Shown: piece after piece, positions 12,377 to 53,965 of the stretch | How positions within the stretch are numbered: the stretch's first letter is position 1 | How the letters are laid out: each line of letters opens with the position of its first letter | Origin: Candidatus Nanoarchaeia archaeon | GTDB lineage: Archaea > Nanobdellota > Nanobdellia > Woesearchaeales > ARS49 | DNA length: 64,000 nucleotides | Assembly: GCA_041484255.1 (NCBI GenBank) | Contig: JBGPHE010000001.1 | Span: 6,240-70,239 of the forward strand | Direction: 5' to 3' | The notes under the pieces: generated by a model | Databases searched by the model: none | What the model saw: the letters and a program-made list of their open reading frames with translations, nothing else | What the model was told of the DNA's origin: nothing | Program-made: the position numbers and the translations under genes

Positions 12377-12398
12377 ACGTTCATAGGTTTTCAAAAAC

Positions 12399-17175: not shown

Positions 17176-17190
17176 TTTTTTCTTTTATTT
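17176..17190. terminator. T-rich run (TTTTTTCTTTTATTT) shared by convergent pyrEF and the 2-hydroxyacid dehydrogenase gene
   Basis: Lies between or over the two stop codons at 17173-17175 (plus) and 17185-17187 (minus). Confidence 0.4.
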
Positions 17191-18150: not shown

Positions 18151-18186
18151 TGCTGCAACGGAAGAATGCGCGTATTTAAGCGTTTC

Positions 18187-18771: not shown

Positions 18772-18962
18772 GTTGTCCCACTCACTCACCGTGCAGGCCC
18801 GCACGAATGGAAAAAGAGTGGGCAAAAATGGCTTTAAACATTATGACACATTATCCCATGAAGACTGCATTTACTCCTCATTTGTGTCAAATGTGACAAA
18901 TGACGAAAAGTATATATAGCACAATTCCTCACCGAATGCACAGCGATTGGGGGTGTACAGTG

Positions 18963-19607: not shown

Positions 19608-19618
19608 TTCTTTTCTTC
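19608..19618 (+). terminator. Oligo-T terminator after the ACT-domain gene (TTCTTTTCTTC)
   Basis: T-run after the TGA at 19605-19607. Confidence 0.3.
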
Positions 19619-19666
19619 AGGAGTAGTAACAAAGATTATTAGAGCGCAAGCGCTCGACGGAAGCAT

Positions 19667-20659: not shown

Positions 20660-20669
20660 GTTCACAAAT

Positions 20670-20677
20670 CTTAAATA
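20670..20677 (+). promoter_or_regulatory. TATA-like CTTAAATA for pgk
   Basis: 23 bp upstream of the ATG at 20700. Confidence 0.35.
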
Positions 20678-20699
20678 GCCATAGTTCTCGTGCAAATGT

Positions 20700-23145: not shown

Positions 23146-23198
23146 ATGCACGGCAGAATGGCGAAAGGTTTTTATAGGTTCGTGACAGGCAGAAGGTA

Positions 23199-23513
23199 GT
23201 GAAAAAGGGGGAGTACGCAAAAGCGAAACAGCAGCAGCGCCAGAGCGCTCTCCAGCAAATTCACGTATTGTTCGACGCCGCGGCGCTGGCGTTCCCGTCC
23301 GATGCAGCAAAAGCAGACGCGATGGTGGCGAAAGCGCACAAATTGATGCAGCGGAGCAAGGTGAAGCTGCCTGTTCTGCTCAAAAAACGCTTTTGCAAGG
23401 AGTGCAAGGCGCTTTGGGTGCCCGGAAACACGGTGCGCGTGCGGCTGACCAAGGGAAGGCTCGTGTACACCTGCCTGAAATGCAAGCGTATCCAGCGCAT
23501 GCCACTCAGATAG
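23199..23513 (+). CDS. rnp4: Ribonuclease P protein component 4 (Rpp21/Rpr2 family)
   Basis: Rpr2 zinc ribbon RFCKECKALWVPGNTVRVRL...LVYTCLKCKRIQR (CxxC...CxxC) preceded by a basic helical region. Confidence 0.7.
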   Translation: MKKGEYAKAKQQQRQSALQQIHVLFDAAALAFPSDAAKADAMVAKAHKLMQRSKVKLPVLLKKRFCKECKALWVPGNTVRVRLTKGRLVYTCLKCKRIQRMPLR

Positions 23514-23570
23514 CCATTCTGTTAACCTATTTAACAAAAGAGCCTTTTCGTTCAAGGTAACACCACAAAC

Positions 23571-23578
23571 CTTATATA
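23571..23578 (+). promoter_or_regulatory. TATA box CTTATATA, candidate promoter of the giant-gene operon (small ORF 23627 plus genes 1-3)
   Basis: 49 bp upstream of the GTG at 23627. Followed by the inverted repeat 23584-23604. Confidence 0.45.
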
Positions 23579-23583
23579 CCTCT

Positions 23584-23604
23584 AATGTTAGTCTAACTAA
23601 CATT
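23584..23604. promoter_or_regulatory. Perfect 9-bp inverted repeat AATGTTAGT-cta-ACTAACATT at the predicted transcription start of the giant operon
   Basis: Seen directly in the sequence. Centred about 20 bp downstream of the TATA. Confidence 0.4.
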
Positions 23605-23626
23605 CGCATCGTCGGGGACAACAAGA

Positions 23627-23917
23627 GTGAAAAAAGAGGGTGTTGAGAGTAAAGAGTACGAGAAATTCATACCGAGAGTCATCTTCACCTACTCGACGGA
23701 GCATCTTCTCAAGAAAGACAAGGTCAGATTCTATTACGCGCTGAAGGGCCGCGACGGAAAAACCGGCATCGTCAAGCGCTGCGCCATCGAACAGCTCGGC
23801 CGCACCGTGCTTCTCGTCCCGACGAAACACGCGGCAGATGTCGATGAATTCCTGAAGTACTGGAAGTGCGAATTCCAGCAGCGCCGCGTGCTCGTCGAGC
23901 CGGGAGTGGGCAAATGA
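23627..23917 (+). CDS. Small basic protein (96 aa) heading the giant-gene operon; GTG start, no internal Met
   Basis: ORF with GTG start 49 bp after TATA 23571-23578. Its TGA overlaps the ATG of giant gene 1 (ATGA at 23914-23917). Confidence 0.4.
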   Translation: MKKEGVESKEYEKFIPRVIFTYSTEHLLKKDKVRFYYALKGRDGKTGIVKRCAIEQLGRTVLLVPTKHAADVDEFLKYWKCEFQQRRVLVEPGVGK

Positions 23918-26900
23918 CTCCTGAAAAGCGCGTCGCGTTCGCCGTGCTCCTCTGCGCGGCGATTATCGGCGCAGGCGTGATGCTGCGCGATGCGCACGTG
24001 ACCGGCGATGCGACGTTCGGCACAACAGACTTCACGACGCAGGCAGTCGTCGCGCCCAAGCAGGTCATCCTCATCATCGTCGACGGAATGCAGTACAACC
24101 ATTACGTCACCATGCTGGGCTTCGGCAACCTGTCGAACTTCACGCGGCTGCTGAGCCGCGGCGGCTTCAACACCACGCTGAACATCACAAAGCACACCAG
24201 CACGGTCACCGCGCCGGGCAACGCAGAAATCTACACCGGATTGGGCAGCAGCATCACCGGCGTGACCTCGGACAACTGCAGCACGCCGGTGCCGGTCAAC
24301 ACCACCATCTTTGAGCGGCTCAAACAGTTCAACGCAAGCATCGCGACCGGGACTGTCTACGGCAAGCAGACCTGCTACATTCCGAACGGCGTGCTCGGCA
24401 ATGCCATGTCCGCAATCGACTGGTTCCAGAACCGGTCGCTGTACACGAATACGAACTGGACCGACAACGGCGATATTTGCGCATACGCCCGCAATGCCTC
24501 CACCAAGGCACAGGAGTTCATCGTCAACAACACCAACCGGTCGTTCTTCCTGGTACCGTACTTCGGCAACCCCGACTGCTCAGGCCATGTCGGCACGGAC
24601 AACTCGGTCAATTACAATAACTCCTTCATCGAGGTTGACTACGCGCTCGGCATCCTGCTGGACACGCTGCGCGACCAGGGCATCGAGAACAACACGGCGA
24701 TCATCATCAGCACCGACCACGGCTGGAACGAGGGAACCACAGGCCACTCAACGTTCAATGCGGACACCGCAATCATCCCCCTCATCACCAACAACCGCAG
24801 TGTCATTGCGAACGCGACCATCCTGGGCGTGCGCCAGCAGTGCGACATCGCACCGACCGTGCTGAGCTATTTCGGCGTGCCCTCGGCGAATTACTCAGAC
24901 ATCATCGCCAATGGCTGCTACTCGATGTACGACTCGCTGTTTGACACGCTCACCGGCTGCGCGACTATCAACGCGAGCACGACGCTCGGCCAGAACATCC
25001 AGGCGCCGGGCTCGGGAAGCTGCATCATCGTGAACGCGGACAATATCACGCTCAGCTGCGCAGGGTTCAGCATCGGCGGCAATGCGGCCGGCACCGGCAT
25101 CAATGTCACGAACCGCGCGAATGTCACCATCAAGGACTGCGTTCTTGAGAATTTCACCAACAACATTGTCCTCAACAGCACCAATGCAAGCGTCATCGTC
25201 AACACCACCGCCCGAAAGTCGACGTCCACAAGCATTCTTGTCAGGCAGGGCTTGCGCAACCTCCTCGCAAACAACACAGTCTCCGGCGATTTCATCGGCA
25301 TTCTGCTCTTCAACGGATCCAATAACACCCTGCGCAGCAACAACGTCAGCGGAATCTCGACCGGAATCACGCTGTTTTTCACGCAGAACAACACACTGAT
25401 CAATGATACCGGCGCGAGCACGTCAGGCACCGGCATTTTCCTCACCGCGTCTATCAACAACACGCTGAACAGCGTGCTCGCAACAAGCGTCAGCGGCAAC
25501 GGCCTGATGTTTTCCAGCATGGGTTTGGGAAACAACGTCATCGCGAATACGACCGGCCGCAGCAGCAGCGGCATCGGTGTGTACCTTACGAGCGGCGCGA
25601 ATCTCAATACCCTGCTGAACGTCACTGCCGCAAGCGACAGCAATGCGGCGCTCGCGTTTGACTTTTCCAGCGGAAGCAACCTGTTCAATGACACCACGCT
25701 CCTCAGCAACAGCACGTGGCTGTCGGCAGACAGCGACAGCTACTTCAATACCCTCACCAATGCCAGCTTCGTGTCCCAGTTTGGCGGCATCGCCGTCCTG
25801 AGAAACTTCACCCTTCCGAACGCGACGACCGTCACCCTCGCATCACTGAACATCACGAGCAACCGCGCGTTCCTGAACAGCACGAACCTGTCGTTCCTGA
25901 ACCAGACCGCAGTCATCACGCTGAACGGCGTCACGTCCGTCGACCCGAAGCCGCAGGTGGCCTTGGTCGATGGCGGGGCGTTCTCGGACTGCCTGCCGAC
26001 CGCAGACCCGTTCTGCACCGAACTGAGCTTCAGCGGCGGCGTGTTTGTCTTCAATGTCTCGCATTTCACGACCTTTGCGTCGTTTGAGAGCGCGGACGTG
26101 AATGTGACGCTGACCAAGTCAGACTCGCCCGACCCGGTGAACGCGAGCGGCTATCTGACCTACACTATTACAGTCAATGTCTCAGTGGGCAACGCAAGCA
26201 ATGTAACGCTTACCGATGTCTACCCTGCGCAAGTCATCTTCAATGGCTCCCAGCCCGCGCCGCTTGCCGGAACGAACAACACGTTTGTCCTGGGCAACCT
26301 GTCGCTGAACACCAGCACCGTCGTCAATATCACTGTGCTCGTGCTGAACGTGAGCAACAACACCATCATCAACAATACCGCGAACATCTCGTTCCAGAAC
26401 TCGACCGGCGGCATCGGACGGCTGAACGTGACTGAGAACACTACGGTCATCAACCTCACGTTCCCCGCGCCCTCGCCTTCGCCGACAAGCAGCGGCGGAA
26501 CCAGTGGCGGAGGCGGCTACAGCGTCAGGCCCACACCGAACGCTCCGTCAGTCGCTGCGTCGCAGAACTGCTTCGAAGGCTGGGCGTGCGAAGGCTGGAG
26601 CAGGTGCGAGAATGGCGCGCAGGAGCGCGCGTGCGTTGACCTGAATCACTGCGGCACCGAATCGCTCAAGCCCGCGACGACGCAGTCGTGCGCGAGCCCG
26701 CACGTGCAGGAGCTGGTGCAGGAAGAAGTCGTGGAGCAGCCCGCCGAGCTGCCCCCGCAGCAACCGCAACAGCCTATCCAGTTGCAGATGCAGGGTACAG
26801 AAACGTCTGCCGTGAAGACCGCGTTCTTCACATCCGGAAGCGCGCTGCTCTGGCTGCTCTTGTTCATCATCCTCGGCGGAATCATCGTCACGATCGCATA

Positions 26901-27228
26901 CGCGAAGTTCATGCACCGCGCTCCCGAAGCGCCCGAACCCGACCTTCCGCCCGCGCCGGGACGCGAAGAGCCGCTGCCCGCGCCTGAGCTTGACAATGGC
27001 CTTGCGCAAGAGCACGAAACGCCCTTTACTGAGGAGCTTGAGCTGCAGCCCGCGATAAGCAAGCCCGAACCAGAAGTGCAACGCGCGCTTCCCAAGCCTC
27101 GCGTGGCACGCAGCCGCGAAGAATTGGAGCAGATTGAACGCAAGCTCGCAAGCATTGAGAGTTCATTATCACGCAGCCGGCGCGCCGCACCAAAGCGCAG
27201 CAGCGCACGCAGGAGGACGCGCAAATGA
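23914..27228 (+). CDS. Giant surface protein 1 (1104 aa): signal anchor, nucleotide pyrophosphatase/phosphodiesterase (AlkP-superfamily) domain, parallel beta-helix repeats, DUF11 domain, six-Cys stalk module, TM helix, basic tail
   Basis: Single open frame; domain motifs described in findings; N-x-S/T-rich; C-terminal TM about 26830-26905. Stop overlaps the gene 2 ATG. Confidence 0.8.
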   Translation: MTPEKRVAFAVLLCAAIIGAGVMLRDAHVTGDATFGTTDFTTQAVVAPKQVILIIVDGMQYNHYVTMLGFGNLSNFTRLLSRGGFNTTLNITKHTSTVTAPGNAEIYTGLGSSITGVTSDNCSTPVPVNTTIFERLKQFNASIATGTVYGKQTCYIPNGVLGNAMSAIDWFQNRSLYTNTNWTDNGDICAYARNASTKAQEFIVNNTNRSFFLVPYFGNPDCSGHVGTDNSVNYNNSFIEVDYALGILLDTLRDQGIENNTAIIISTDHGWNEGTTGHSTFNADTAIIPLITNNRSVIANATILGVRQQCDIAPTVLSYFGVPSANYSDIIANGCYSMYDSLFDTLTGCATINASTTLGQNIQAPGSGSCIIVNADNITLSCAGFSIGGNAAGTGINVTNRANVTIKDCVLENFTNNIVLNSTNASVIVNTTARKSTSTSILVRQGLRNLLANNTVSGDFIGILLFNGSNNTLRSNNVSGISTGITLFFTQNNTLINDTGASTSGTGIFLTASINNTLNSVLATSVSGNGLMFSSMGLGNNVIANTTGRSSSGIGVYLTSGANLNTLLNVTAASDSNAALAFDFSSGSNLFNDTTLLSNSTWLSADSDSYFNTLTNASFVSQFGGIAVLRNFTLPNATTVTLASLNITSNRAFLNSTNLSFLNQTAVITLNGVTSVDPKPQVALVDGGAFSDCLPTADPFCTELSFSGGVFVFNVSHFTTFASFESADVNVTLTKSDSPDPVNASGYLTYTITVNVSVGNASNVTLTDVYPAQVIFNGSQPAPLAGTNNTFVLGNLSLNTSTVVNITVLVLNVSNNTIINNTANISFQNSTGGIGRLNVTENTTVINLTFPAPSPSPTSSGGTSGGGGYSVRPTPNAPSVAASQNCFEGWACEGWSRCENGAQERACVDLNHCGTESLKPATTQSCASPHVQELVQEEVVEQPAELPPQQPQQPIQLQMQGTETSAVKTAFFTSGSALLWLLLFIILGGIIVTIAYAKFMHRAPEAPEPDLPPAPGREEPLPAPELDNGLAQEHETPFTEELELQPAISKPEPEVQRALPKPRVARSREELEQIERKLASIESSLSRSRRAAPKRSSARRRTRK
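24052..24900 (+). other. Nucleotide pyrophosphatase/phosphodiesterase (type I phosphodiesterase, AlkP-superfamily) domain of giant protein 1
   Basis: Motifs in NPP-like order: IIVDG (24079-24093), KHTSTVTAPG...YTG (Thr nucleophile context, about 24205-24240), PYFGNPDCSGHVG (24571-24594), STDHGW (24707-24724). Confidence 0.6.
26569..26691 (+). other. Six-Cys membrane-proximal module, copy in gene 1 (CFEGWACEGWSRCENGAQERACVDLNHCGTESLKPATTQSC)
   Basis: Conserved pattern shared with 35943-36065 and 52951-53073. Confidence 0.7.
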
Positions 27229-30200
27229 GCGGCAACGCACAGAAGCGGACCGTGATGCTGCTCGTGCTTGCCTTGGGCCTGCTCGGCGTAGGTACTATGA
27301 TATTCGGCTCGACGCACAGCCCTGCCGCGCTGACCGGACTTGTTACTGACAATGCAAGCGTTCAGCCGGAAGCGCCTGCTGAGCAGCAGCCGATTCCCGA
27401 ATTGCAGGCAGAAGCGACGCCAGAACCGTCATTCTCCACCGAAGCGGCCGCTCCGCGGCTCGTCGATCCTGCGGTGGAACGAGCGCTTGCGGAGAACGGC
27501 ACCGCAGACATCATCATCATCCTCAAAGAAGACGCCGCGTCGCTGTTCGAAACCGAAACGAGCCAAGCAGATGCGCTCGCGCAGCGAAAGGCGTCTGTCG
27601 CGGCCGTGCGCACGGCGTTCGCCGCGGAAATGGGCGGCGGATTCGGAACTGCGAGCAACGCGTTCGAAGTCACGCGCGAGTATGATACGCTCAATGCCAT
27701 CGCGGCAACCATCACCAGCGTCGGCCTGGAAATCTTGAAGACGCGCCAGTCGGTCGAACAGATCGTGCTGGACCGCAGGCTCACGGTCGACCTTACCGTG
27801 AGCGTGCCGCTCATCGATGCGGACGACGTCTGGAACCTCACCGTCAACGGAAGCAACCTCACCGGCAAGGGCGAGGTCATCTGCATCATCGACACAGGCA
27901 TCGACGCCACGCACGTCGCGTTCACCAACAAGATTTTGCCCGGCCAGGACTATGTCAATGAAGACAGCAATCCCGCCGACGACGCGGGCCACGGCACGCA
28001 CGTCTCGGGCATCGCCGCGGGCAACAGCAGCCCGGTGCTCGGCGTCGCAAAGGACGCGAAGATCCTGCCCGTCAAGGTGTGCGACAGCGGCGGCACGTGC
28101 CAGGACACGGATATCCTTGCAGGCATCGACTTCTGCAACAACAACTCGGCGACCTACAACATCAGCGCGATTTCCGGCTCGCTCGGCGACAACAGCCAGT
28201 ACAACTCGACGACCTGCCCGACCACGTACGACAGCATCTTCGCGACGTCGAACTCCTTGGGGCTTATTCCGGTCTTCGCGTCGGGCAACAATGCGTTCAC
28301 GAACGGCATCAGCCACCCTGCCTGCTCGCCGTACGCCATCAGCGTGGGCTCCACGACCAAGGCAGACGCGATGAGCTCGTTCACAAACAGAGGGGGCGAC
28401 CGCCTGGACGTTCTCGCGCCCGGCAGCAGCATTGTTTCCGCGCTCATCACTGGCGGAACCGTCTCCGCATCGGGAACATCGATGGCCACGCCGCACGTCT
28501 CGGGAGCGATCGCGCTCATCCAGCAGAACCAGCGCGCGCTGAACCGCGCCATTGTCAACATCACCGACATGCGCACATTGCTCCAGCAGACCGGCGTGAA
28601 TGTCACGAGCTGGCAGCGCATCGACGTGTACAACGCGATCGCCAAGCTCAACCAGAACTACACCATCAACATCACGGACAACTCTATCGCGAACGGAACG
28701 ACACGCGGCGCAAAGGTGCGGTTCAGCAACTTCACCGATATGAGCAGGTTCGTGGATTGCGGCGTAGTCAGACCCAACTTTGTAGGCATCGACTCCGCAG
28801 CATGCCCGCAGCTGAACAAGAGCGCGCACATCACGTTCGCGAACATCACTGGCATCGGCGCCAGGCCGCTGCGCAACGGCGTGCCCTGCCCGCCCAGCAT
28901 CTGCCAGAACTTCACGTTCGGCAACGGCACGGTCGACTTCGACGTCACGGAGTTTTCAAACTACAGCAGCTTCAACCTGACGAACCTCACCGGCTGCGCG
29001 AACGTGAACGTCAGCTCGGTGCTGACGCAGAACGTCTCCAGCACGAGCAACTGCATCAACATTACTGGAAACAATGTCATCCTGTTCTGCAACGGATTCA
29101 CAATTGCGTTCGACACGGCAGGCGGCGGGCTTGACAACGGCATCAGGGCCAACCAGCGCCGCAATATCACGGTCGACAGCTGCATCATCAGAGATACCAA
29201 TGCAGGAGGCGCGGGCGCTGTGGGAATCGTCGTCAATGGGACGAACAACAGCATCTTCATCAACAACTTTATCCAAGTCAACGGAACGGCGAACAACAAC
29301 GGCTTCATCCTGGACTTGTTTGCGAATAATGTCACCATCGCCAACAACACCGTCAACTCGCGCGGAACGCTCGCGTTCGATTTCCCCATCCAAGTCAGGA
29401 ACCCCGTCAGCAATATCACCATCGCCAACAACACGCTCGTGACGGTGGGCTTGGGCAACAGCGAATGGGGCATTGACGACAGCGGGCTCCAGGACACAGT
29501 CGTCACCAATAATATAATCATTGCACTTTCGGACGGCGGCCTCAACTTCGGCTTTCGCGTGAATGCAGTGCCCCTCAATCTTCAGGTAAGCGACAACAAC
29601 ATCAGCGTGAACGGGAGCGGAAGCTATGCGCTCGTGTTCCCCGACTCTTTAGGGAGCACGCCCAATACCACATTCTCCAACAACGTACTGGGCACGACCA
29701 GCGGCTGGATTACCGTGGGCGCCTTCGCGCGAGTCAACATCACCAACACCACGTTCCGCATGCCGAACGGCAGCATCACCATCCCCGGAACGGTGCAGCT
29801 CAACGAATCGACGGACGTGCTGATTTCCAAGCTGAACATTTCTGCAAATCAGGCGTACCTGAACAGCACAAACCTGACCGCGCTCAACACGACCGCGATC
29901 ATCGCGCTGAACAGTGTCGGCTTCAATGATCCCAAGCCGCAGTTCAGGTTCGGCGAGACCGGCGCGTTCACCGACTGCACACCCACCGTCAACCCGTTCT
30001 GCACCGAGCTGGGCTTCAGCGGCGGCGTCTTCACGTTCAATGTCTCGCACTTCACCGGCTACATCAGCGCGGAAGGCGGCAGCGTCAACCTCACCGGCTG
30101 CGCGACCGTCAACGCGAGCACGGTGCTGACGCAGAACATCGCGTCCAATGACACGTGCCTCTTCACGAACGCGAGCAATATCGTCATCTCCTGCGCAGGG

Positions 30201-33200
30201 CACACCATCACGTACAATGCCAACGGAAGCGGCGCCCTGAGCGATTTCGGAATCAATGTCACGCGCTCATCCAACCTGACCATCACTGACTGCATCGTCC
30301 GCAACGGCAACCTGTCGAGCACCATCGGCGACGCGATGAGCGTGTTCTTCACGAATTACAGCACCTTCAACAACATCTCGCTTGCGGACAACGGCTCCAA
30401 CATCGGGCTGTTCATCATGACGTCGCACAATAACACGTTCGGAAACGATACTGTCCTGACAGGATCTGTTGAGCTGAACGCCATCGCGGAGAACAACTTC
30501 ACCGGCAATGCGTTCAATGGCTCCATTGACAATAGCAACAGCAGGCGGGACATCTTCACGTTCAACACGATGAACGCATCCGTCTCCCTCCAGTCAGGCG
30601 ACGCACGCCTGCGCTTCAACAACATCACCGTCTCCGGCGCGGGTCCGGGCATCAACACCGATCCCGCCGGACCGTTCGAGTTCACCGGCAACCGCGTCGA
30701 GGTGAACGGCGTGAACCCGACCGCGTTCCGCCTTGCCGCGAGCAACGGCAACTTCACCAACAACACGTTCCTTGCGAACGCGTCCGGCACGTCTGTCGCA
30801 ATCAGCATCGAGGCGAGCTCGTCAGGGAACTTCACCGGCAACAATTTCACCGCGCGCGGGACCGCCTCGACCGCGATCCGCTGGCAGTTCTCAGTCCCCA
30901 ACACGACGAGCTTCAGGGACACCGTCATCTCTTCAGACGCAAGCTGGATTGACATGAATCCGAGCGGCGCGGTCACGCCGTCCATCAATTACACGAACAC
31001 GACGTTCGTTTCGGGCAACGGCAGCATTAACATCATCGGCTTCGCGCAGCTGAACAACACCCAGAACGTCACGCTTGCCCGGCTCAATATCTCATCCAAC
31101 CGCGCGTTCCTGAACACTACGAACATCTCCGCATTCAACCAGACCGCAGTCATCGCGCTGACCGGCATCGGCTTCACTGACCCGAAGCCACAGGTCGCCT
31201 TTGTGGATGGCGGCGCGTTCTCGGACTGCTCGCCGACCGCGAACCCATTCTGCACTGAGATAAGTTATACGGGCGGCGTGTTCACGTTCAACACGTCGCA
31301 CTTTACCAGCTTTGACAGCGCGGAAAGCACCGTGACAAACTGCACGCTCGGACCTGTGCTGGTCAACAGCAGCCTCACGCTCGCGCAGGACCTTACCGGC
31401 AACGGCACCTGCCTCATCGCGAACACGAACAACATCGCCATTGACTGCGCAGGATTCGCCATCAACTTCGACCGCGGCGGAGGATTCGGCCCCATATTCG
31501 GCATCGCCGCGCAGAGAAAGACGAACATCAGCATCACCAGCTGCATCATCAGAAGCATCAACGCTTCGGGCCAGAACGGATACTCCATCAACTTCTCGAA
31601 CGTAACACAGTCGGTCATCACCAACAACACGCTCATCGCGAACGGGTCGAACTCGATCGGCATCTACATCGGGGTGAGCTCAGTCGGCGTCAATGTCACC
31701 AACAACACCATCGGCGCATCGCCTATCGGGTTCGTGGTCGGCGTCTCTATCGACAACTCGTCGTTCATCAACGTCAGGAACAGCATACTTATCGCCAACA
31801 GCAGCACCGGCCCTGCCGAGGGCATCCAAGCGACCTCCAACGCGCAATTCATCGCGGTGAGCAACAACAGCATCCGCGTGCTGCAGACTTCAGGCTCCCA
31901 GCCGACAGGATTTGTCATCAATGGCGGCAACGCCACATTCGCAGGCAATACTGTTGTAGTAAATCTGTCCGACACGAGCGACGCGACGGGAATCAGCGTG
32001 GGCGGCGGCGCGGACTTCGTGGTCGAGAACAACACCATTATCCTCGCAATCAACACGACAGACACCATCAACACCAAGCGGGCGTTCCAGCTCGCGTCGC
32101 TGAGCAACGCGGTCGTACGCAACAACACAATCGTCCTGCTTGGCTCTGCCAAGTTCTTCATGGGCATGCTGCTCTCCATCCTGAGCAACGTGACCATCGC
32201 GAATACGAACATCACGTCATTGGCAGAGACGAACACTTCGCTGATAGTCATCGACGGCGTCTTTGGCACAACAACCGTGACGCTGACGAACACAACCCTT
32301 TCCGCGCTCAATGACCCTTGGATCCAGCAAGAAGGAACCGCCGCAACCTCCTCGAACTTCACCAACACAACATTCATCGCGCAGAACGGCTCGGTCCAGT
32401 TCCCTGGATTGGTCCAGATAAACGGCACCAACAACGTGAGCGCGCAGCGGCTCAATATCACCGCGAACCTCGCCTTCCTCAACAGCACCAACCTGACGTT
32501 CCTCAACCAGACTGCAATCATCGCGCTGAAAGGCATCGTATCGGTCAGCCCGAAAGCGCAGGTCGCGTTCGTTGACGGCGGCGCATTCAGCGACTGCATC
32601 AGCACGGCGAACCCGTTCTGCACCAACCTCAGCTACGCAGGGGGCGTCTTCACGTTCAACACGTCGCACTTCACCAGCTACCAGAGCGCGGAGAGCGGGA
32701 CGAACATCACCGGATGCCCCATCACCATTAATGTGAGCACGACGCTGACGCAGAACTTGCAAAGCAACAGCAGCTGCATCACGTTCGGCAATGACAGCAT
32801 CGCGCTCGACTGCGGCGGATTCGCCCTCAACGGCACGCAGAACGGCACCGGCATCAATGCGACCGCAAGGAACAACATCTCCATCGTCAACTGCTTCGTC
32901 AATAACTTCACGCAGGATATCGTGCTCGACCGCGTCAACAACAGCGTGATGCGCAATGACACCGCGCGCAGCGCGGCGCAGGAAGGCGTCCTGCTCTACT
33001 CGGCCGTCAACGACCTCCTCGTGAACGTCTCGGGCGAGGGCGCGGTCAACCGGGACGGAATCCAGCTGGTCAATTCCACCACTGCAGGCACCAACAACAC
33101 GCTCATCGGCGTGAACGGCACGAGCAACAGCTCGTCAGGCGTGGGGCTGAATATCCAAATTGACAATACGACCGTCAATGACAGCAGGGGCGTAAGCCTC

Positions 33201-36200
33201 AACCACCGCGGCATCCAAATCCTCAGTTCGGGCAACCGCGCGACCAACCTCACCGGCATCGGCGTAGACGTCGGAATGCTGGTCACCACCGGCAGCTTCA
33301 ACAACGTGACGGGAAGCACCGGCATCGGCGTCCCCGGCCTCTCATTCAGCAGCGCAAGGAGCACGTACGCCAACAACCTCGGCATCAGCACGAATGGCAT
33401 CGCAATCAGCGTCGCGGGCGGCAACCTCACGCTCGTCAATAACACTGGCAGGAGCAATGCGACCTCAGGCATCAGAATCGACGGGGCAGACTTTAACCTG
33501 ACCGGCAACACCGGCGTCAGCAACACATCGGTCGGCATCCACTCGCCATTGAGTTTCGTCAACAGCATCGTTGTGGGCAACAACGGAACCGGTCCCGCCG
33601 GCATCTCCATCGGCGCAGGCGGCGGCGCGTTCAATGACACGTTCCTCAATAACGTCGGAACGGGCGTTGCAAGCGTGGGATTCGCGATCGGCGGCGACAA
33701 TCAGACTGCCATCAACAACACCGGAACAAGCAACGGCTCGTTCGGCATGCAATTCCTTACCGGCGGCGATAACCTTGCAGTGAACAACACAGGAATCAGT
33801 ACGGCAAGCAGCGGTATCGACGTGCGCGTCTACAGCAGGTCGCGGTTCCTGAATAATACCGCCAGCAGCGGGAGCGCCACGGCACTGGCAATCCTGGTCT
33901 TAAGCACTAATAACACCTTTGCCAACACCACACTCTTCACCAATGCGACTTGGATTATTACCGACGGGACAAGCCCCGACAACAACATCACGAACACGCT
34001 CTTCCAGGGCAGCGCAGGCAGCATCCGCGTCTTCGGCCTCGCGAACATCCCGGGAAGCGCCAACGTGAGCATTGCGCGGCTGAACACGAGCGCGAACCGC
34101 GCGTTCCTGAACAGCACGAACCTGACGTTCCTCAACCAGACCGGACAAGTCACGTTCACCGGCGCGACGAGCAACCAGGTGCTGGTGGACTTTGACGACG
34201 ACAACTCGTTCTCGTTCTGCGACGCGAGCATCTGTTCAGTCGTCAGCTTCGCGGGCGGCACGCTGGTTGTCAATGTCACGCACTTCACGACGTTCTCGTC
34301 GACCACCGGCAACTCGAACATCACGCTGACCAAGACCGACTCGCCCGACCCGGTCAATGCCAGCAGTAATCTGAGCTACCAGATTTCGGTCAATGTCACG
34401 TCCGACAGCCCGAGTAATATTACGCTGACCGACCAATACCCTGCGCAAGTCATCTTCCTCACGGCGCAGCCGTCGCCCATCGGCGGAACGAACAATACGT
34501 TCATTGTCGGCAATCTGACCGCGAATATGTCGTTCACGGTAAACGTCACCGTGCTCGTGCTGAACATCACCAACGGCACCGTCATCAACAACACTGCAAA
34601 CATCTCGTTCCAGAACAGCACGGGCAGCGTCATCGCGCTGAGCGTGACCGAGAACACCACCGTCAGCAATCCGCCGCAGATTAACGACAGCACGATCAGC
34701 GTGACCAAGACCGACACCCCCGACCCGGTCGAGAACGGCACGCAGCTCAACTATACTATCACGGTGACGGTCATCAGCGGCGTTTCCGCGTTCAATGTCA
34801 CGGTCAATGACACGTATCCGTCGCAGGTCATCTTCAACAGCGGCCAGCCGTCTCCGGTGCCGGGAACGAACACCACGTTCATCCTCGGCAACCTGTCTGC
34901 GGGCGCGGTCGTCGTGCTCAATATCACTGTGAATGTCTCGGCAGGCGTCATCAACGGCACCGTCATCAACAACACCGTCAATGTCACATTCCAGAACACG
35001 ACCGGCGGCCTGCTGAGCGCGCTCGCGAACGCGAGTACGACTGTGCAGAACGTGACGGTCAATGTCACAACGTTGTTCAACCTGAGCAACATCAGTGTCA
35101 TCAAGACCGACACGCCCGACCCGGTGACTGCAGGCGACATACTGACCTACCAAATCAATGTCACGAGTAACGGCAACGGCACCGCGTTCAACGTGATTGT
35201 CAATGACACGTACCCTGCGGAAGTTATCGCGTTCATGTCCTCCCCTCCGCTCGTTCCGGGAACGAACAACACGTACACGCTCGGCAACCTGACGCCCGGC
35301 ACGCTCTTCACCATCAACTTCAGCGTCGCGGTCAGGAACATCACGAACGGCACGGTCATCAACAACACCGTCAATGTCACGTTCCAGAACGAGACCGGTG
35401 GATTGTTCAGCAGAGTCACCACGCAGAACACCACCGTCCTGAACCCGCCAGTCTTCAACCTCAGCAATGTCAGCGTGACGAAGAGCGACACGCCCGACCC
35501 GGTCGAGAACGGCACGCAGCTCAACTATACTATTACGGTCACGAGCACGGGCAACGGCACGGCGTTCAATACAACCGTCATCGACACGTACCCTGCTGAA
35601 GTCGTCTTTAACACCGCCCAGCCGACGCCGAGTTCGGGCAATAACACGTTCATCATCGGCAACTTGACCGCGGGAACGGTTGTCGTGCTGAACATCACGG
35701 TCAATGTGACGCAGGTCGCAAACGGAACCGTCATCAACAACACCGTCAATGTCACGTTCCAGAACGAGTCGAGTGACTTGCTGAGCGCGCTTGCGAACAC
35801 GAGCACGCTGGTGCAGAACGTCACGCCGACGCCCACGCCTCCGACGCCGCAAGGCAGCAGCGGCGGAAGCGGTGGCGGCGGAGGATTCAGCATCAGACGC
35901 AATGAGACTGTCGCGGCAGGAGTTCCCGCCCCGTCAGGACCGTGCGTCGAAAGCTGGGCGTGCGAGCAGTGGGGCCAGTGCCAGGACGCCAGCCAGGCAA
36001 GAATCTGCGTCGACTTGAGCCAGTGCGGCACGGCGACATTGAAGCCGGCGACCGAGCAGCGCTGCGCGATTACGCCGCTGCGCGAGCAGCCGATACCTGT
36101 GGAGCCTGAACAGCCTGCGCCCGTGCAAGTGAGCGCGCCCGTTCCGGTTGTTGTGCAGGAGAAATCAAAGAGCTGGACGCTTGTAGGCATCCTGCCGGTC

Positions 36201-36731
36201 GCGATTGACGTATTGCTCATCCTCTTCGCGCTTATCGCAATGACGCACATGCTGCGTTACCGCAGCGATCGCGCGAGCGGGCACTGGCTGGCGGCAGTGG
36301 ACATCATCGGAGGAATCACACTCATCGCGCTTGTCGCACACTACATCATCAGCAGGGCATTCCTGCCGGTCGAGTACATCACCTTTGTCGTATTGCTGCT
36401 GTTTGTCGCAGTGCTGCGGCTTGCCGAGCGCGGCAGGGACTTCGGAGGAGCGCCGCGCGTTCCGCGCATCCCTGCATTGCCTGATGCGCCTGAGGAAATA
36501 GTCCTTGAAGACGAGCCCGCGCCGAAGAAAGCAGCAATCAAGGCTCCGAAGGCAGAGCACAAGCACGCGGGCCCGAAGAAGCCCTTGTTCAGCTTCTTCC
36601 AGCCCAAACCGAAGGTCGAGGACGACATGAAGGACGTCTTTGACTCGCTCGACCGCATCAGCACGCTGCTGGAGAGGAACAAAGTCACGATCAGAGCTCC
36701 GAAAAAGAAGAGCCGGGTGAGAAAAAAGTAA
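27225..36731 (+). CDS. Giant surface protein 2 (3168 aa): signal anchor, I9 propeptide, subtilisin S8 protease, four beta-helix blocks separated by two-Cys junction modules, 4 DUF11 units, six-Cys stalk module, 3 C-terminal TM helices, basic tail
   Basis: Single open frame of 9.5 kb. Catalytic triad motifs IIDTGID / HGTHVSG / GTSMATPHVSG. Confidence 0.8.
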   Translation: MSGNAQKRTVMLLVLALGLLGVGTMIFGSTHSPAALTGLVTDNASVQPEAPAEQQPIPELQAEATPEPSFSTEAAAPRLVDPAVERALAENGTADIIIILKEDAASLFETETSQADALAQRKASVAAVRTAFAAEMGGGFGTASNAFEVTREYDTLNAIAATITSVGLEILKTRQSVEQIVLDRRLTVDLTVSVPLIDADDVWNLTVNGSNLTGKGEVICIIDTGIDATHVAFTNKILPGQDYVNEDSNPADDAGHGTHVSGIAAGNSSPVLGVAKDAKILPVKVCDSGGTCQDTDILAGIDFCNNNSATYNISAISGSLGDNSQYNSTTCPTTYDSIFATSNSLGLIPVFASGNNAFTNGISHPACSPYAISVGSTTKADAMSSFTNRGGDRLDVLAPGSSIVSALITGGTVSASGTSMATPHVSGAIALIQQNQRALNRAIVNITDMRTLLQQTGVNVTSWQRIDVYNAIAKLNQNYTINITDNSIANGTTRGAKVRFSNFTDMSRFVDCGVVRPNFVGIDSAACPQLNKSAHITFANITGIGARPLRNGVPCPPSICQNFTFGNGTVDFDVTEFSNYSSFNLTNLTGCANVNVSSVLTQNVSSTSNCINITGNNVILFCNGFTIAFDTAGGGLDNGIRANQRRNITVDSCIIRDTNAGGAGAVGIVVNGTNNSIFINNFIQVNGTANNNGFILDLFANNVTIANNTVNSRGTLAFDFPIQVRNPVSNITIANNTLVTVGLGNSEWGIDDSGLQDTVVTNNIIIALSDGGLNFGFRVNAVPLNLQVSDNNISVNGSGSYALVFPDSLGSTPNTTFSNNVLGTTSGWITVGAFARVNITNTTFRMPNGSITIPGTVQLNESTDVLISKLNISANQAYLNSTNLTALNTTAIIALNSVGFNDPKPQFRFGETGAFTDCTPTVNPFCTELGFSGGVFTFNVSHFTGYISAEGGSVNLTGCATVNASTVLTQNIASNDTCLFTNASNIVISCAGHTITYNANGSGALSDFGINVTRSSNLTITDCIVRNGNLSSTIGDAMSVFFTNYSTFNNISLADNGSNIGLFIMTSHNNTFGNDTVLTGSVELNAIAENNFTGNAFNGSIDNSNSRRDIFTFNTMNASVSLQSGDARLRFNNITVSGAGPGINTDPAGPFEFTGNRVEVNGVNPTAFRLAASNGNFTNNTFLANASGTSVAISIEASSSGNFTGNNFTARGTASTAIRWQFSVPNTTSFRDTVISSDASWIDMNPSGAVTPSINYTNTTFVSGNGSINIIGFAQLNNTQNVTLARLNISSNRAFLNTTNISAFNQTAVIALTGIGFTDPKPQVAFVDGGAFSDCSPTANPFCTEISYTGGVFTFNTSHFTSFDSAESTVTNCTLGPVLVNSSLTLAQDLTGNGTCLIANTNNIAIDCAGFAINFDRGGGFGPIFGIAAQRKTNISITSCIIRSINASGQNGYSINFSNVTQSVITNNTLIANGSNSIGIYIGVSSVGVNVTNNTIGASPIGFVVGVSIDNSSFINVRNSILIANSSTGPAEGIQATSNAQFIAVSNNSIRVLQTSGSQPTGFVINGGNATFAGNTVVVNLSDTSDATGISVGGGADFVVENNTIILAINTTDTINTKRAFQLASLSNAVVRNNTIVLLGSAKFFMGMLLSILSNVTIANTNITSLAETNTSLIVIDGVFGTTTVTLTNTTLSALNDPWIQQEGTAATSSNFTNTTFIAQNGSVQFPGLVQINGTNNVSAQRLNITANLAFLNSTNLTFLNQTAIIALKGIVSVSPKAQVAFVDGGAFSDCISTANPFCTNLSYAGGVFTFNTSHFTSYQSAESGTNITGCPITINVSTTLTQNLQSNSSCITFGNDSIALDCGGFALNGTQNGTGINATARNNISIVNCFVNNFTQDIVLDRVNNSVMRNDTARSAAQEGVLLYSAVNDLLVNVSGEGAVNRDGIQLVNSTTAGTNNTLIGVNGTSNSSSGVGLNIQIDNTTVNDSRGVSLNHRGIQILSSGNRATNLTGIGVDVGMLVTTGSFNNVTGSTGIGVPGLSFSSARSTYANNLGISTNGIAISVAGGNLTLVNNTGRSNATSGIRIDGADFNLTGNTGVSNTSVGIHSPLSFVNSIVVGNNGTGPAGISIGAGGGAFNDTFLNNVGTGVASVGFAIGGDNQTAINNTGTSNGSFGMQFLTGGDNLAVNNTGISTASSGIDVRVYSRSRFLNNTASSGSATALAILVLSTNNTFANTTLFTNATWIITDGTSPDNNITNTLFQGSAGSIRVFGLANIPGSANVSIARLNTSANRAFLNSTNLTFLNQTGQVTFTGATSNQVLVDFDDDNSFSFCDASICSVVSFAGGTLVVNVTHFTTFSSTTGNSNITLTKTDSPDPVNASSNLSYQISVNVTSDSPSNITLTDQYPAQVIFLTAQPSPIGGTNNTFIVGNLTANMSFTVNVTVLVLNITNGTVINNTANISFQNSTGSVIALSVTENTTVSNPPQINDSTISVTKTDTPDPVENGTQLNYTITVTVISGVSAFNVTVNDTYPSQVIFNSGQPSPVPGTNTTFILGNLSAGAVVVLNITVNVSAGVINGTVINNTVNVTFQNTTGGLLSALANASTTVQNVTVNVTTLFNLSNISVIKTDTPDPVTAGDILTYQINVTSNGNGTAFNVIVNDTYPAEVIAFMSSPPLVPGTNNTYTLGNLTPGTLFTINFSVAVRNITNGTVINNTVNVTFQNETGGLFSRVTTQNTTVLNPPVFNLSNVSVTKSDTPDPVENGTQLNYTITVTSTGNGTAFNTTVIDTYPAEVVFNTAQPTPSSGNNTFIIGNLTAGTVVVLNITVNVTQVANGTVINNTVNVTFQNESSDLLSALANTSTLVQNVTPTPTPPTPQGSSGGSGGGGGFSIRRNETVAAGVPAPSGPCVESWACEQWGQCQDASQARICVDLSQCGTATLKPATEQRCAITPLREQPIPVEPEQPAPVQVSAPVPVVVQEKSKSWTLVGILPVAIDVLLILFALIAMTHMLRYRSDRASGHWLAAVDIIGGITLIALVAHYIISRAFLPVEYITFVVLLLFVAVLRLAERGRDFGGAPRVPRIPALPDAPEEIVLEDEPAPKKAAIKAPKAEHKHAGPKKPLFSFFQPKPKVEDDMKDVFDSLDRISTLLERNKVTIRAPKKKSRVRKK
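27462..27798 (+). other. Subtilase propeptide (inhibitor I9-like) of giant protein 2
   Basis: IIIILKEDAASLFE...FEVTREYDTLNAIAATITSVGLEILKTRQSVEQIVLDRRL precedes the catalytic domain. Confidence 0.55.
27850..28630 (+). other. Subtilisin-like serine protease (S8) catalytic domain of giant protein 2
   Basis: Asp at about 27888-27906 (IIDTGID), His at 27990-28010 (HGTHVSG), Asn at about 28279-28296 (ASGNN), Ser at 28471-28498 (GTSMATPHVSG). Confidence 0.8.
34310..35830 (+). repeat. Array of 4 DUF11-type (TIGR01451 conserved repeat domain) units in gene 2, about 380 nt each
   Basis: Each unit: [IV]T[KL]TD.PDPV......L.Y.I.V.......NVT..D.YP..V.F...QP.P..GTNNTFI.GNLT.....V.NITV.V.N.....VINNT.N..FQN. 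Confidence 0.65.
35943..36065 (+). other. Six-Cys membrane-proximal module, copy in gene 2 (CVESWACEQWGQCQDASQARICVDLSQCGTATLKPATEQRC)
   Basis: Same Cys/Trp spacing as the gene 1 and gene 3 copies. Confidence 0.7.
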
Positions 36732-36738: not shown

Positions 36739-39700
36739 ATGGGGGACATGGGCAGAAACAGACGAGGGGTGGTGTCTGAACGGACGCTTATTGGCATTGT
36801 GCTACTTGCAGGGCTGCTCGGCATCGGCGTGATGCTCTGGGCGACGGGAATCGTCTCCTTTGCGCAGCAGCACGGCGTCACCGGCAGCGCGGTCGCGTCC
36901 ATCACCGGCCTCGCAGCGGATGATCTCGAAACGCAGCCGTCATTCACGGCCACGCCCGCTCCGAACACGGCGCCTATCTATAGAGGCCCTGCCAGCTTCA
37001 GCACGCCGCAGGACACAGCACTCACGATTGACTTGTCGCAGTACTTCTCCGATGCGGAAAACGACGAACTCACCTTCATCGCGTCGTCCGAAGACGTCAT
37101 CGCAGTCGCCATCGACGGCAACGCGCTCACGCTGACGCCTGCGGCAGGCTTCGCGGGCGAGCGTTCGCTGACCGTCATCGCGTCAGACGGCGTCAACCTC
37201 GCGCGCACGCCGGTCAAGATTGTCGTGGAAGGCACGCAGGCCACGCCGCCTGCACCGCAGCAGGAAGCTCCTGCGCCTGTGGAGCAGCCGCCCGCGACCA
37301 ACGAGTCCGCAGCGAACGAGACGCCGTTCAATACGCAGGAAGAAGAATTCACCAATCCTGTATTCAACACGCAAGTCACGAGCATCAGCGCCTGCACGAA
37401 CATCAGCACGCCGGGCGAGTACGCGCTCAGCACCGACCTCTCGCGGAACATCACCTGCATCGTCATCCAGACAGACAACGTGAGCTTCAGCTGCGCAGGC
37501 CACACTATCACCTGGGACACGCAAGGTCTGCGAAACATCTCAGGCTTCACGAGCTTCATCTCCGCGATCAACATCAACAAATCAGGCAGGACGCTCTTCA
37601 ATGTCACAGTCAGGGACTGCCGCCTGATCGACGGCACTGTCGGCGGATTCAACGACCACGCGATCGTGCTGCAGGACACGAACGATTCGCTCATTTTCAA
37701 CAACACCCTCGTTGCATCCGGCGAGACGTCGCTGGGAATTGAGATTGTTCGGACGGGAAACATCAACATCTCAAGCAACCGCATCAATGCGTCGTCGTTC
37801 GGAGGCGCTCAGGCGATCGCCAACGCGATCCAGTTCAATCTTTTCAGCAATAATGTCAGCATCTCCGACAATGACATCCGCGGATTCCTTTCCGGCAGCG
37901 GAATCAGGACGGTCGGCGTGATGGTTGACGCGACCTCGAATCCCCACGATGTGGAAGTCGTCGGGAACAGTATCACCGTCAACTCGACCGGTGGAAGCGC
38001 AACCTCAACAGGGATGAACGGCGTCACCGGCTTCGGCACATTCCTCAACGCGACCAACAATGACGTGCAGGCGTTCGGCTCAGGACCGAGCGGCGTGCTG
38101 GCAAATGGGGCGTTCTTCAACCGCATCCTCGCGCGGGGTTCCACCGCAGAGGGTCTGCGTGTCGGAGAGCTTGCAGACTCCAATAATATCACTGTGAATG
38201 GCAGCACCACTGGCGCGCTCGTGGGGTTTAACGGCAACTCGACATACAGCAACAACCGGCTCATCGCGACCGGCAGCTGGATATATACTTCCTTGAACGG
38301 GAACACTACTTTCATCAACACCACGTTTGTCAACGCAAATGGCACCCTCCTGTTCTACAATTTCTACATTGATGATGTCGTCATTGTCCAGCAGAGCGAC
38401 CTCAATACCACCATCAACCACGCCTATGTGAACAGCGTCGACTTCCCGTTCCTGAACACGAGCGCGGAGATCTTCCTGCAAGGATTCAATCTCACGAACA
38501 ACAAGCCCGTGGTCGACTACACGGACACCAACCACTTCCAGGGCTGCCCGGACACCTGCACGCTGCTCGAGACGGGCGACAACTTCATCCGCTTCACCGT
38601 CACGCACTTCACGACCTACTCGTCTTCGGACCTGGTCCTGCTGCTCGAAAAGTCCGACAGCACCGACCCGGTGCGCATCGGCTCGCTGTTCAATTACAGC
38701 GTCGCCGTGAGCGTGCTGAACGGCAACGCGAACAATGTCACGCTCACCGACCTGTACCCGCTTGAAGTTGTCTTCAATTCCTCGCAGCCTGACCCGATCG
38801 ACGGCACGAACGACACGTTCATCCTGGGCAACCTGACCGAGAACACGACGTTCATAGTGAACATCACGGTGCAGTCGCTGACGAACGATTCAGGCATCGT
38901 CAACGTCACCAACGGCACCGTCATCAACAACACCGTGAACATCACGTTCCAGAACGACACGAGCGACGTGTTCACGCTGAACGACACCGAGGAGACGACG
39001 CTCGTTGAGGCGACCGAGAACTTCGAGCCGCTCTCGGACTGCGCAGTCATCAATACCAGCTCGTTCCTGACGACGAGCGTTTCGGGCACGGGCACGTGCA
39101 TCACCATCGGCAATAACAGCATCACGCTGGAATGCGCAGGGAACACGATAACGTATGCGACAACAGGCCCGGGAAGCGCTATTTTCGCGGAAGACAAGTA
39201 TAATTTCACGGTGCGGAACTGCACGCTCGTGCTCGGCGACCTCAACAGGCTCTCCCTGTATGACTCGCCAGCCATCAACGCGACGAACACCACGAGCGGA
39301 GTCAACAACCGTATCGACGGCTCCTCGTTCCGCCTGCTCAATTACTTCTACCAGGACGGTTTGCCGCAGCAGAACTGCGGCGACCTCTCATTGAATGACT
39401 CAGCCTTCACCGGCAACGCCACGTGCACGAACATCACCTTTGTTGCGCGGGCGCGTATCAGGGTGAACTCGACCGCGGTCTCCAACAACTCAATCGCGTT
39501 TATCACGGACAACTTCCTGCTCGGGGTGCGCGCGTTCATCAACGCGAACGGCACCGGATACCCTGGAGGCGCGGATGGTAATGCGAACGGCTCCGGCCCC
39601 GGAGGCGGCATCGACCCGGTCAGTATCAATCGCGGCGGCGGCGGCGCAGGACACGGCGGAATCGGCGGCCAGAGCAATGTGCCGCAGGGCGCAGGCGGAA

Positions 39701-53785: not shown

Positions 53786-53965
53786 GTGGGTTTAACCAGA
53801 AAGCTTCAGCGGACGAAGAAAGATCAGTATACGCTGACGATTCCAAAAGCATTAGTGGAACTGCTCAACCTCAAGGAGCAGGACGAGATCGAGTTTAACC
53901 TTGTTGACGGCAATATCACGCTGAAGAAGTCGGCGCGCAAGCGGGGTGAGAAGGATGCGAAGTAA
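53786..53965 (+). CDS. AbrB/MazE (SpoVT-AbrB, swapped-hairpin) family small DNA-binding protein (59 aa), GTG start
   Basis: Translation VGLTRKLQRTKKDQYTLTIPKALVELLNLKEQDEIEFNLVDGNITLKK... matches the AbrB-type pattern (..tiPk.l.e.l.l..gd.v....dg..i.L.k). GGGGAG lies 8 nt upstream. Under 60 aa, so absent from the ORF track. Overlaps the giant gene 4 start by 11 nt. Confidence 0.5.
   Translation: MGLTRKLQRTKKDQYTLTIPKALVELLNLKEQDEIEFNLVDGNITLKKSARKRGEKDAK

Follow-up and report, generated by a model that had tools for sequence, protein, structure and literature searches.

A putatively active subtilase at the tip of a giant, membrane-anchored surface protein encoded by a Woesearchaeote

Surface-tethered subtilases are already known, as are giant adhesin-like proteins and giant surface proteins of DPANN archaea. 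How DPANN archaea contact other cells and feed on them is little understood, and the protease of SPEARE, the only named giant surface class in DPANN, is disputed. Here, gene B is described, one of four giant genes (A-D) in a stretch of 64,000 nucleotides (nt) from a Candidatus Nanoarchaeia archaeon (assembly GCA_041484255.1, contig JBGPHE010000001.1, positions 6,240 to 70,239 of the forward strand), which is referred to as the window. The host is a Woesearchaeota (DPANN) archaeon, with a thermosome 77-86% identical to proteins named Ca. Woesearchaeota. Gene B encodes a putative active S8 protease at the head of a very long stalk with a C-terminal membrane anchor. It already carries the automatic product name 'subtilisin family serine protease' in IMG. 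An earlier note, made from the sequence alone, had read it as a 3,168-amino-acid (aa) giant, and the 3,168 codons do form one unbroken open reading frame (ORF) at 27225-36731 (+). The layout of the protein, which was defined by chunked BLAST of the gene-B protein against itself and the neighbouring genes, is as follows:

27225..36731, +, gene B, S8-headed membrane-anchored surface protein; single ORF, 3,168 aa, 329 kDa before glycosylation
27225..27329, +, predicted signal peptide or signal anchor, aa 1-35 (K7/R8, hydrophobic aa 10-28); hydropathy peak 2.42
27513..27785, +, I9-type propeptide, aa 97-187, no N-glycosylation sequons; from Pfam, AlphaFold2 (AF2), Foldseek and relatives
27864..28595, +, Peptidase S8 catalytic domain, aa 214-457; from Pfam (E 2e-42), alignment to the PDB and conservation in 71 sequences
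nt 27891, catalytic D223, in IIDTGID (aa 221-227)
nt 27990, catalytic H256 (first His of HGTH), in HGTHVSG (aa 256-262)
nt 28287, oxyanion N355, in ASGNNAF (aa 352-358)
nt 28479, catalytic S419, in GTSMATPHVSG (aa 417-427)
28650..28979, +, post-catalytic beta-sandwich, aa 476-585; all-beta in the AF2 model, with predicted local distance difference test (pLDDT) values mostly 73-91
28980..34310, +, four beta-helix modules, aa 586-950, 951-1368, 1369-1824 and 1825-2362
34311..35840, +, four DUF11/CLIPPER immunoglobulin (Ig)-like domains, aa 2363-2872; Pfam DUF11 E 1e-21
35943..36089, +, juxtamembrane 6-Cys motif, aa 2907-2955, C.E.W.C..W..C...R.C.D...C.T...P.T...C
36180..36422, +, three hydrophobic helices, aa 2986-3008, 3024-3042 and 3048-3066; hydropathy peaks 2.86, 2.05 and 2.51
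36423..36731, +, predicted cytoplasmic tail of 102 aa, pI 10, a helical stretch followed by a basic C-terminus; K+R 25/102, no sequons

Several described systems share parts of this architecture. Gram-positive cell-envelope proteinases, such as lactococcal PrtP, the streptococcal C5a peptidase ScpA, and SGO_0316-type LPXTG peptidases, are multi-domain S8 enzymes involved in nutrition or host interaction. Like the gene-B protein, they combine a propeptide with an S8 domain and are tethered to the surface by a C-terminal anchor; however, gene B lacks the PA-domain insert, the Fn3-type A/B domains, and the LPXTG sorting signal, is anchored by three predicted transmembrane helices, has a stalk of beta-helix and CLIPPER domains, and is 2-3 times longer. 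The best match in both sequence and structure is found among the Tk-SP/pyrolysin-type archaeal subtilases, which share the succession of propeptide, S8A domain, and C-terminal beta-sandwich or jelly-roll. Nevertheless, Tk-SP is soluble, the deposited ProN construct having 539 residues, whereas the gene-B head is fused to a stalk of ~2,400 aa plus a membrane anchor and bears conserved cysteines specific to its family. The STABLE protease of Staphylothermus marinus is an archaeal subtilisin-family enzyme located on the tetrabrachion stalk, for which peptide supply or precursor processing has been proposed (PMC5744192). In both cases an archaeal subtilisin-family protease sits on a long, glycosylated surface stalk, which in tetrabrachion is extremely stable, but STABLE is a protein of its own, attached without a covalent bond at a point along a coiled-coil of 70 nm, whereas the gene-B protease would be the covalent tip of a beta-helix/Ig stalk.

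In the giant proteins of Omnitrophota, N-terminal S8 or C39 domains have been proposed to cleave the giant itself (bioRxiv 10.1101/2023.11.21.568195). These proteins (Archaeovorins) resemble gene B in having an N-terminal S8 domain beside the signal peptide and in being giant and partly beta-helical, and they are implicated in cell-cell attack. However, they are bacterial, exceed 30,000 aa, and contain many transmembrane segments and cytoplasmic glycosyltransferase/SecA-like domains, in contrast with the archaeal, single-ectodomain gene-B protein. As for the stalk, DUF11 has been renamed CLIPPER and described as a stalk domain with an intramolecular isopeptide bond that resists proteolysis (PMC12617251). 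CLIPPER fibrillar adhesins, whose functional tip and anchor are linked by a proteolysis-resistant stalk of tandem CLIPPER domains (PMC12617251), differ in that the tip of gene B is an enzyme instead of a binding domain and that the isopeptide bonds are here only candidates.

A protease held at the end of a long stalk had been taken as the defining feature of SPEARE-like proteins, a view that the SPEARE literature does not sustain. The best-conserved part of SPEARE is a cytoplasmic domain resembling a 'type III restriction enzyme', and every member carries laminin-G (Hamm et al. 2019; PMC6642349), while a later re-analysis found neither serine protease nor endonuclease, but a VirB4/TraG-like ATPase (PMC10266531). 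Gene B and SPEARE have in common that both are giant, mostly extracytoplasmic DPANN surface proteins with a C-terminal membrane anchor. SPEARE also carries adhesion domains; here, laminin-G is confined to two neighbours of gene B, genes C and D, and the Pfam search of the gene-B ORF gave no Laminin_G match. Moreover, the cytoplasmic P-loop domain that is the hallmark of SPEARE is absent from gene B, whose tail has only 102 aa and no Pfam domain; the protease of SPEARE is disputed, whereas that of gene B is a canonical S8 enzyme; and SPEARE belongs to Nanohaloarchaeota, gene B to a Woesearchaeote. Gene B is not a member of SPEARE, being set apart by the described SPEARE domains and not by direct sequence comparison.

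Catalytic head and propeptide

The head of the gene-B protein is an ordinary S8A subtilase with an I9-type propeptide, nearest to Tk-SP; it is canonical in sequence and fold and does not constitute a new enzyme class. PF00082 (Peptidase_S8) matches aa 214-457 with 145.9 bits, well over the cut-off of 21.8 (E 2e-42), and a sequence search of the PDB with the head retrieved 165 subtilases, headed by Tk-SP from Thermococcus kodakarensis (3afg, E 1e-31). The motifs bearing the catalytic Asp, His, and Ser and the oxyanion Asn match Tk-SP residue by residue and also align to subtilisins, N355 pairing with AAGNS of Tk-SP and being equivalent to N155 of subtilisin BPN'. The Foldseek alignment to 3afg extends into its C-terminal beta-jelly-roll domain, in keeping with the gene-B beta-sandwich. 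In an alignment of the gene-B head with 70 relatives (n=71), D223, H256, and S419 are invariant (71/71) and N355 is present in 70/71, and most of the giant relatives that were checked keep the catalytic motifs. The complete triad and oxyanion Asn claimed for this head in the earlier note are thereby borne out: every quoted motif is present, and the triad follows the order Asp-His-Ser. A pseudo-protease is ruled out by careful alignment, because the catalytic residues are unsubstituted in gene B and are kept across the relatives at the frequencies just given. The head is thus described here as a putative active protease, its competence being predicted from these residues.

The fold agrees with this assignment. 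The AF2 model of the head (aa 60-620, built from 71 sequences; pLDDT 84, predicted template modelling score, pTM, 0.77) has pLDDT > 90 across most of the S8 domain and consists of a beta-alpha-beta-beta-alpha-beta unit at aa 79-184, mostly of high pLDDT, followed by the subtilisin fold and a beta-sandwich at aa 479-574. Foldseek gave TMt values of 0.85-0.89 to thermitase and savinase. The top matches in the PDB are unprocessed zymogens in which propeptide and catalytic domain are both spanned, aligned over 400-568 columns; they include ProN-Tk-SP (3afg; E 3e-29, ~565 columns, 561-568), pro-subtilisin E (3whi; TMt 0.83), and pro-Tk-subtilisin (2e1p).

For the propeptide, the Pfam search of the full ORF returned no Inhibitor_I9 match at E <= 0.01, and, because the Pfam score of gene B lies below the cut-off, the I9 question was decided by fold and by relatives. 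Two giant relatives (P0250 and P0248, listed below) exceed the I9 cut-off, with 24.6 and 21.8 bits, respectively. The I9-like propeptide that had been proposed therefore stands by fold and by these relatives, but not by its own sequence score (16.9 vs 21.2 bits), and the propeptide is of the I9 type, folded and docked in the model as in pro-subtilisins. An acidic Pro/Glu-rich linker separates it from the N-terminal segment, a predicted export signal or anchor according to the hydropathy peak at aa 10-28.

The Cys-rich inserts attributed to the head turned out not to be inserts, since a gap of only ~3 residues interrupts the alignment of those stretches to the canonical Tk-SP core. Cysteines are conserved within the family, with C220, C304, C331, and C367 in 71/71 sequences and C286 together with C292 in 57/71, which suggests up to three disulfides in the head. 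A mycosin identity was considered and rejected (TIGR03921, 109 bits vs a cut-off of 279), and the NCBIfam model SGO_0316_fam matches the gene-B protein weakly. Among the giants of the window, the head (aa 1-550) is unique to gene B by chunked BLAST.

Stalk, anchor and predicted topology

The stalk proposed behind the head, made of beta-helix and DUF11 domains, is upheld by four DUF11 stretches and, for the beta-helix part, by paralogous modules together with a model of moderate confidence. The post-catalytic beta-sandwich is related to the cap that closes each stalk module, aa 555-630 matching aa 918-998. Every beta-helix module begins with an N-L-T-G-C-type motif and ends with a Cys-containing cap that includes '...FNVSHFT'. 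The modules are repeated within gene B and in the neighbouring genes, with 30-67% identity. The Pfam Beta_helix match is marginal in gene B (17.3 bits, under the cut-off), but genes A and D give clear matches in their homologous modules, with 34.8 and 109.8 bits, respectively. The fold matches of module 2 are all right-handed parallel beta-helices, namely phage tailspikes, depolymerases, and polysaccharide lyases.

PF01345 (DUF11) covers four stretches of the gene-B protein with 77.7 bits vs a cut-off of 24.6. Across the 13 CLIPPER repeats of the window, K7 and D40 are invariant with a spacing of 33, equal to that of K715-D748 in the solved CLIPPER domain 9IFR, and Asn is invariant at positions 92, 93, and 96. 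Sequence and profile searches of the repeats against the PDB gave no significant match, and cross-linking through this candidate triad is inferred.

A Pro/Thr/Gly linker leads from the stalk to the 6-Cys motif, which has no matching Pfam family and also occurs in genes A and C and in the remote giants P0248, P0250, P0253, P0260, and P0314. The three transmembrane helices that had been placed at 36165-36425 agree with the hydrophobic segments found at nt 36180-36422, and, as had been suggested, the head lies distally, at the N-terminus of a very long ectodomain that has a C-terminal membrane anchor. An Arg-rich loop joins helices 1 and 2 and fits an out-in-out-in topology. In the last 293 aa, no Pfam match beyond noise was found at E <= 10, and no P-loop or nuclease domain. 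The tails of genes A, B (36600-36731), and C and of relatives end alike, in a run of Lys/Arg that comes after a short, amphipathic segment of helix-like character, e.g. ...LDRISTLLERNKVTIRAPKKKSRVRKK; this common ending could be a shared cytoplasmic docking signal.

The gene-B protein contains 216 N-x-S/T sequons vs 75 expected from its composition, and the cytoplasmic proteins of the window contain 0-2 each. Per 100 aa, there are 0 sequons in the propeptide, 2.3 in the S8 domain, 6.6-7.9 in the beta-helix modules, 12 in the CLIPPER domains, and 0 in the membrane helices and tail. This distribution, like the Arg-rich loop and the basic tail, supports a topology in which the ectodomain faces outwards and the tail lies in the cytoplasm. 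The same pattern suggests a stalk armoured with glycans against proteolysis and a disposable propeptide that is left bare.

Relatives and genomic setting

Searching 1.84 billion representative proteins for matches to the 561-aa head indicates that gene B is a member of a recurrent family of S8-headed giants, identified by sequence in many metagenomes. Relatives aligning over the whole head are often 2,000-6,600 aa long and carry the head near their N-terminus:

P0249, 6,581 aa, 61% identity to the head
P0250, 3,299 aa, 57% identity to the head
P0257, 2,859 aa, 50% identity to the head
P0248, 4,535 aa, 47% identity to the head
P0255, 2,187 aa, 46% identity to the head
P0253, 3,027 aa, 42% identity to the head
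P0256, 5,257 aa, 41% identity to the head
P0260, 4,527 aa, 38% identity to the head

The Pfam order in the giant relatives is that of gene B, with I9 where detectable, S8, Beta_helix/NosD, and DUF11. The family layout, which comprises a signal, an I9-type propeptide, a Cys-bearing S8 domain, a beta-sandwich, beta-helix modules with or without CLIPPER domains, C-terminal transmembrane segments, and a short basic tail, is complete in gene B, P0250, and P0248 and partial in P0253, P0260, P0255, and P0247. Many giant relatives have 5-7 sequons/100 aa, between one and three membrane helices near the C-terminus, and a short tail with a helical stretch and a basic end; often they also contain the 6-Cys motif. 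Two distant members, P0302 and P0352, have long cytoplasmic tails that look by eye low-complexity and coiled-coil-like, and not like ATPase domains. Among the matches listed, the named relatives of the head (none > 1,085 aa) belong to Nanoarchaeia, Woesearchaeota, Pacearchaeota, and Aenigmarchaeota. Locus L003 (CAYYLN010000004.1, a contig that was binned as Methanosarcinales) encodes, at positions 1032-7001, a 1,989-aa S8-headed beta-helix protein with a head 57% identical to that of gene B, next to two ribonucleotide reductase genes; this case points to mis-binning or to transfer of the family beyond DPANN. Within the literature searched on Woesearchaeota/DPANN and subtilases, no description of a family of S8-headed giants was found.

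The left half of the window holds archaeal housekeeping genes (thermosome, FtsZ, GluRS, Spt5, L11, GAPDH, PGK, and Rpr2), and the four giants A-D occupy ~40 kb of the whole window. Scans for tRNAs and Rfam families detected no RNA genes in the 64-kb window. The features flanking gene B are the following:

23627..23917, +, conserved 96-aa ORF, 4-nt overlap with gene A; no Pfam match
23914..27228, +, gene A, 1,104 aa, phosphodiesterase/sulfatase-like head on a beta-helix/CLIPPER/6-Cys/transmembrane chassis like that of gene B
26569-26715, the same 6-Cys motif in gene A
36739..53535, +, gene C, 5,598 aa, N-terminal Big_9, beta-helix-type repeats, Laminin_G_3 x4, CLIPPER x8, 6-Cys motif and one transmembrane segment
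about 52951-53100, the same 6-Cys motif in gene C
53955..64000, +, gene D, > 3,348 aa, running off the window, N-terminal Big_9, Beta_helix x10, Laminin_G_3 x5 and CLIPPER

In Pfam, gene A matches Phosphodiest (1e-13) and Sulfatase (4e-11), both of the alkaline-phosphatase superfamily, as well as Beta_helix (1.6e-8). Stalk modules are common to all four giants, with 30-76% identity, and the anchor is common to A, B, and C. The stop codon of gene A overlaps the start of gene B (ATGA) and gene C begins 7 nt past the gene-B stop, an arrangement that suggests one operon.

A syntenic locus (L008; ENA ERZ27247320 k141_2016595) comes from a relative whose thermosome is 91% identical. There, the order runs from Spt5 and L11 through GAPDH and PGK to a 416-aa gene, a small ORF, the 4,535-aa S8 giant P0248, and another giant; gene A is not present in this locus. 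Its two features that correspond to the window are:

9672-9938, small ORF, 77% identical to the 96-aa ORF of the window
10001-23608, S8 giant P0248, 40-48% identical to gene B

Housekeeping proteins of the two loci are 62-90% identical, GAPDH and PGK being at 72%, which is below the 77% of the small ORF. Because the housekeeping proteins keep 62-90% identity and the S8 giant only 40-48%, the site appears to be a conserved one at which the giants diverge rapidly and vary in module number. The product of the 96-aa ORF may be an accessory factor or a regulator of the giants. Elsewhere in the window, two patches at 4001-6000 and 10001-12000 have a low guanine-cytosine content (0.47-0.48 vs ~0.56-0.60 elsewhere), each with an ORF lacking a Pfam match (4533-5393 and 10366-11298, the latter with hydrophobic stretches), and may be acquired islands. 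At the edge of the window, ORF 12-482 (+) matches Peptidase_M48 (E 6e-7) and eCIS_core (23.4 bits vs a cut-off of 22).

Proposed function, alternatives and meaning

Taken as a whole, gene B probably encodes an active protease tethered by a stalk, held tens of nm from the cell and acting on external or host-surface proteins, a reading that is preferred with moderate confidence. In this mechanism, the protein would be exported N-terminus first, and the propeptide would serve as folding chaperone and temporary inhibitor before its autocatalytic removal. The cut would probably fall just before S193-V-P-L, by analogy to AQSVPYG, the context in which the subtilisin propeptide is cleaved. The mature protease would remain covalently attached to the stalk through its C-terminus, and an extended stalk would place it ~50-70 nm away from the membrane, as estimated by hand from ~0.48 nm per ~23-residue beta-helix coil and ~4 nm per Ig-like domain. 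Dense N-glycosylation and, possibly, CLIPPER isopeptide cross-links would keep the cell's own protease from cutting the stalk. The tethered enzyme could then degrade outside proteins, either environmental ones or those of a neighbour's or host's surface layer, and this digestion would nourish an archaeon of reduced metabolism and/or open the site of contact, while the sister giants may contribute phosphodiesterase-type activity and lectin-type binding.

Several points weigh against this reading. The host association of the Woesearchaeote is taken from the general view of the lineage, and self-processing, or the processing of neighbouring giants, would fit the same anatomy. Signal cleavage and membrane topology are predicted from hydropathy and charge, and the candidate isopeptide bonds of the CLIPPER domains are deduced from conserved residues. 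On the N-terminal fragment, PF05922 reaches 16.9 bits at aa 97-187 (profile positions 3-80 of 82), under its cut-off of 21.2. The AF2 model of beta-helix module 2 is of only moderate confidence (pLDDT 66), with many short strands, and its fold matches are weak (E ~1e-4, template modelling scores of 0.3-0.4).

The main rival is that the S8 head is chiefly a maturation or shedding protease that cuts its own stalk or giants A, C, and D. Co-transcription with three other giants, which is likely, would suit such a role, and there are precedents in the STABLE protease, proposed to cleave the tetrabrachion precursor (PMC5744192), and in the N-terminal S8 domains of Omnitrophota, proposed to cleave the giant that carries them (bioRxiv 10.1101/2023.11.21.568195). 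It is nevertheless considered unlikely: the stalk appears resistant to proteolysis, with its very dense sequons and CLIPPER domains, the syntenic locus L008 keeps an S8 giant while its partner genes differ, and the genes after the S8 giant of L003 are those of ribonucleotide reductase and not of other giants. A purely structural role, in which the protein would be an adhesin or a surface-layer-like fibre and the S8 domain a binding module or a barely active relic, is improbable. The fibrillar-adhesin architecture of Ig-like and beta-helix repeats plus an anchor (PMC12617251) and the resemblance of the beta-helix modules to glycan-binding tailspikes speak for it, but D223, H256, and S419 are invariant, N355 is kept in 70/71, the motifs persist in most giants checked, and the propeptide is retained, although only an active subtilase would need it.

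It is quite improbable, too, that gene B is a SPEARE-type device, that is, a giant of nanohaloarchaeal style that binds a host and breaches its envelope with a protease coupled to a cytoplasmic enzymatic domain. The DPANN lineage, the giant and mostly extracytoplasmic protein with a C-terminal anchor, as described in PMC6642349, and the laminin-G-rich giants that adjoin gene B are all in keeping with it. However, the 102-aa tail lacks the cytoplasmic P-loop domain of 'type III restriction enzyme' or VirB4-TraG-like type, laminin-G is missing from the gene-B ORF, the host does not belong to Nanohaloarchaeota and has cytoplasmic proteins that are neither acidic nor halophilic, and the serine protease of SPEARE was itself rejected on re-analysis (PMC10266531). 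Finally, head and stalk could have been fused by misassembly of repetitive DNA or by an overlooked frameshift, as the region is highly repetitive and the sequences come from metagenome assemblies. This is hardly credible: the exact 3,168-aa product is recorded on two contigs of unequal length (NCBI GCA_041493925.1, 87.6 kb; JGI 3300052987, 53.6 kb) and the DNA repeats that touch gene B are no more than ~77% identical, so that a misjoin or a missed frameshift is unlikely, and the head-stalk junction (aa 476-600) is kept, with equal domain order, in relatives aligning over the entire 561-aa head.

With the tethered protease acting on outside proteins as the preferred reading, the most attractive angle is a proposal that reaches beyond gene B, namely a head-swapping cluster on a common self-protected chassis. 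This more speculative reading, held only tentatively and as a joint claim, combines a hypervariable locus 3' of PGK; interchangeable heads (subtilase, phosphodiesterase/sulfatase-like, and lectins) on one chassis formed by beta-helix modules, isopeptide-type CLIPPER domains, a glycan coat, the 6-Cys knot, transmembrane segments, and a basic tail; and a conserved upstream protein of ~90 aa that accompanies the cluster. If it were true, the swapping of heads and modules between strains would set which neighbours are contacted and digested, and would amount to a DPANN system of host range and feeding distinct from SPEARE and from type-IV-secretion-like giants. The head, with ~560 residues, offers a clean construct for biochemistry, and gene B is a concrete candidate for a protein with which Woesearchaeota would digest material outside the cell or attack the surface of a host.

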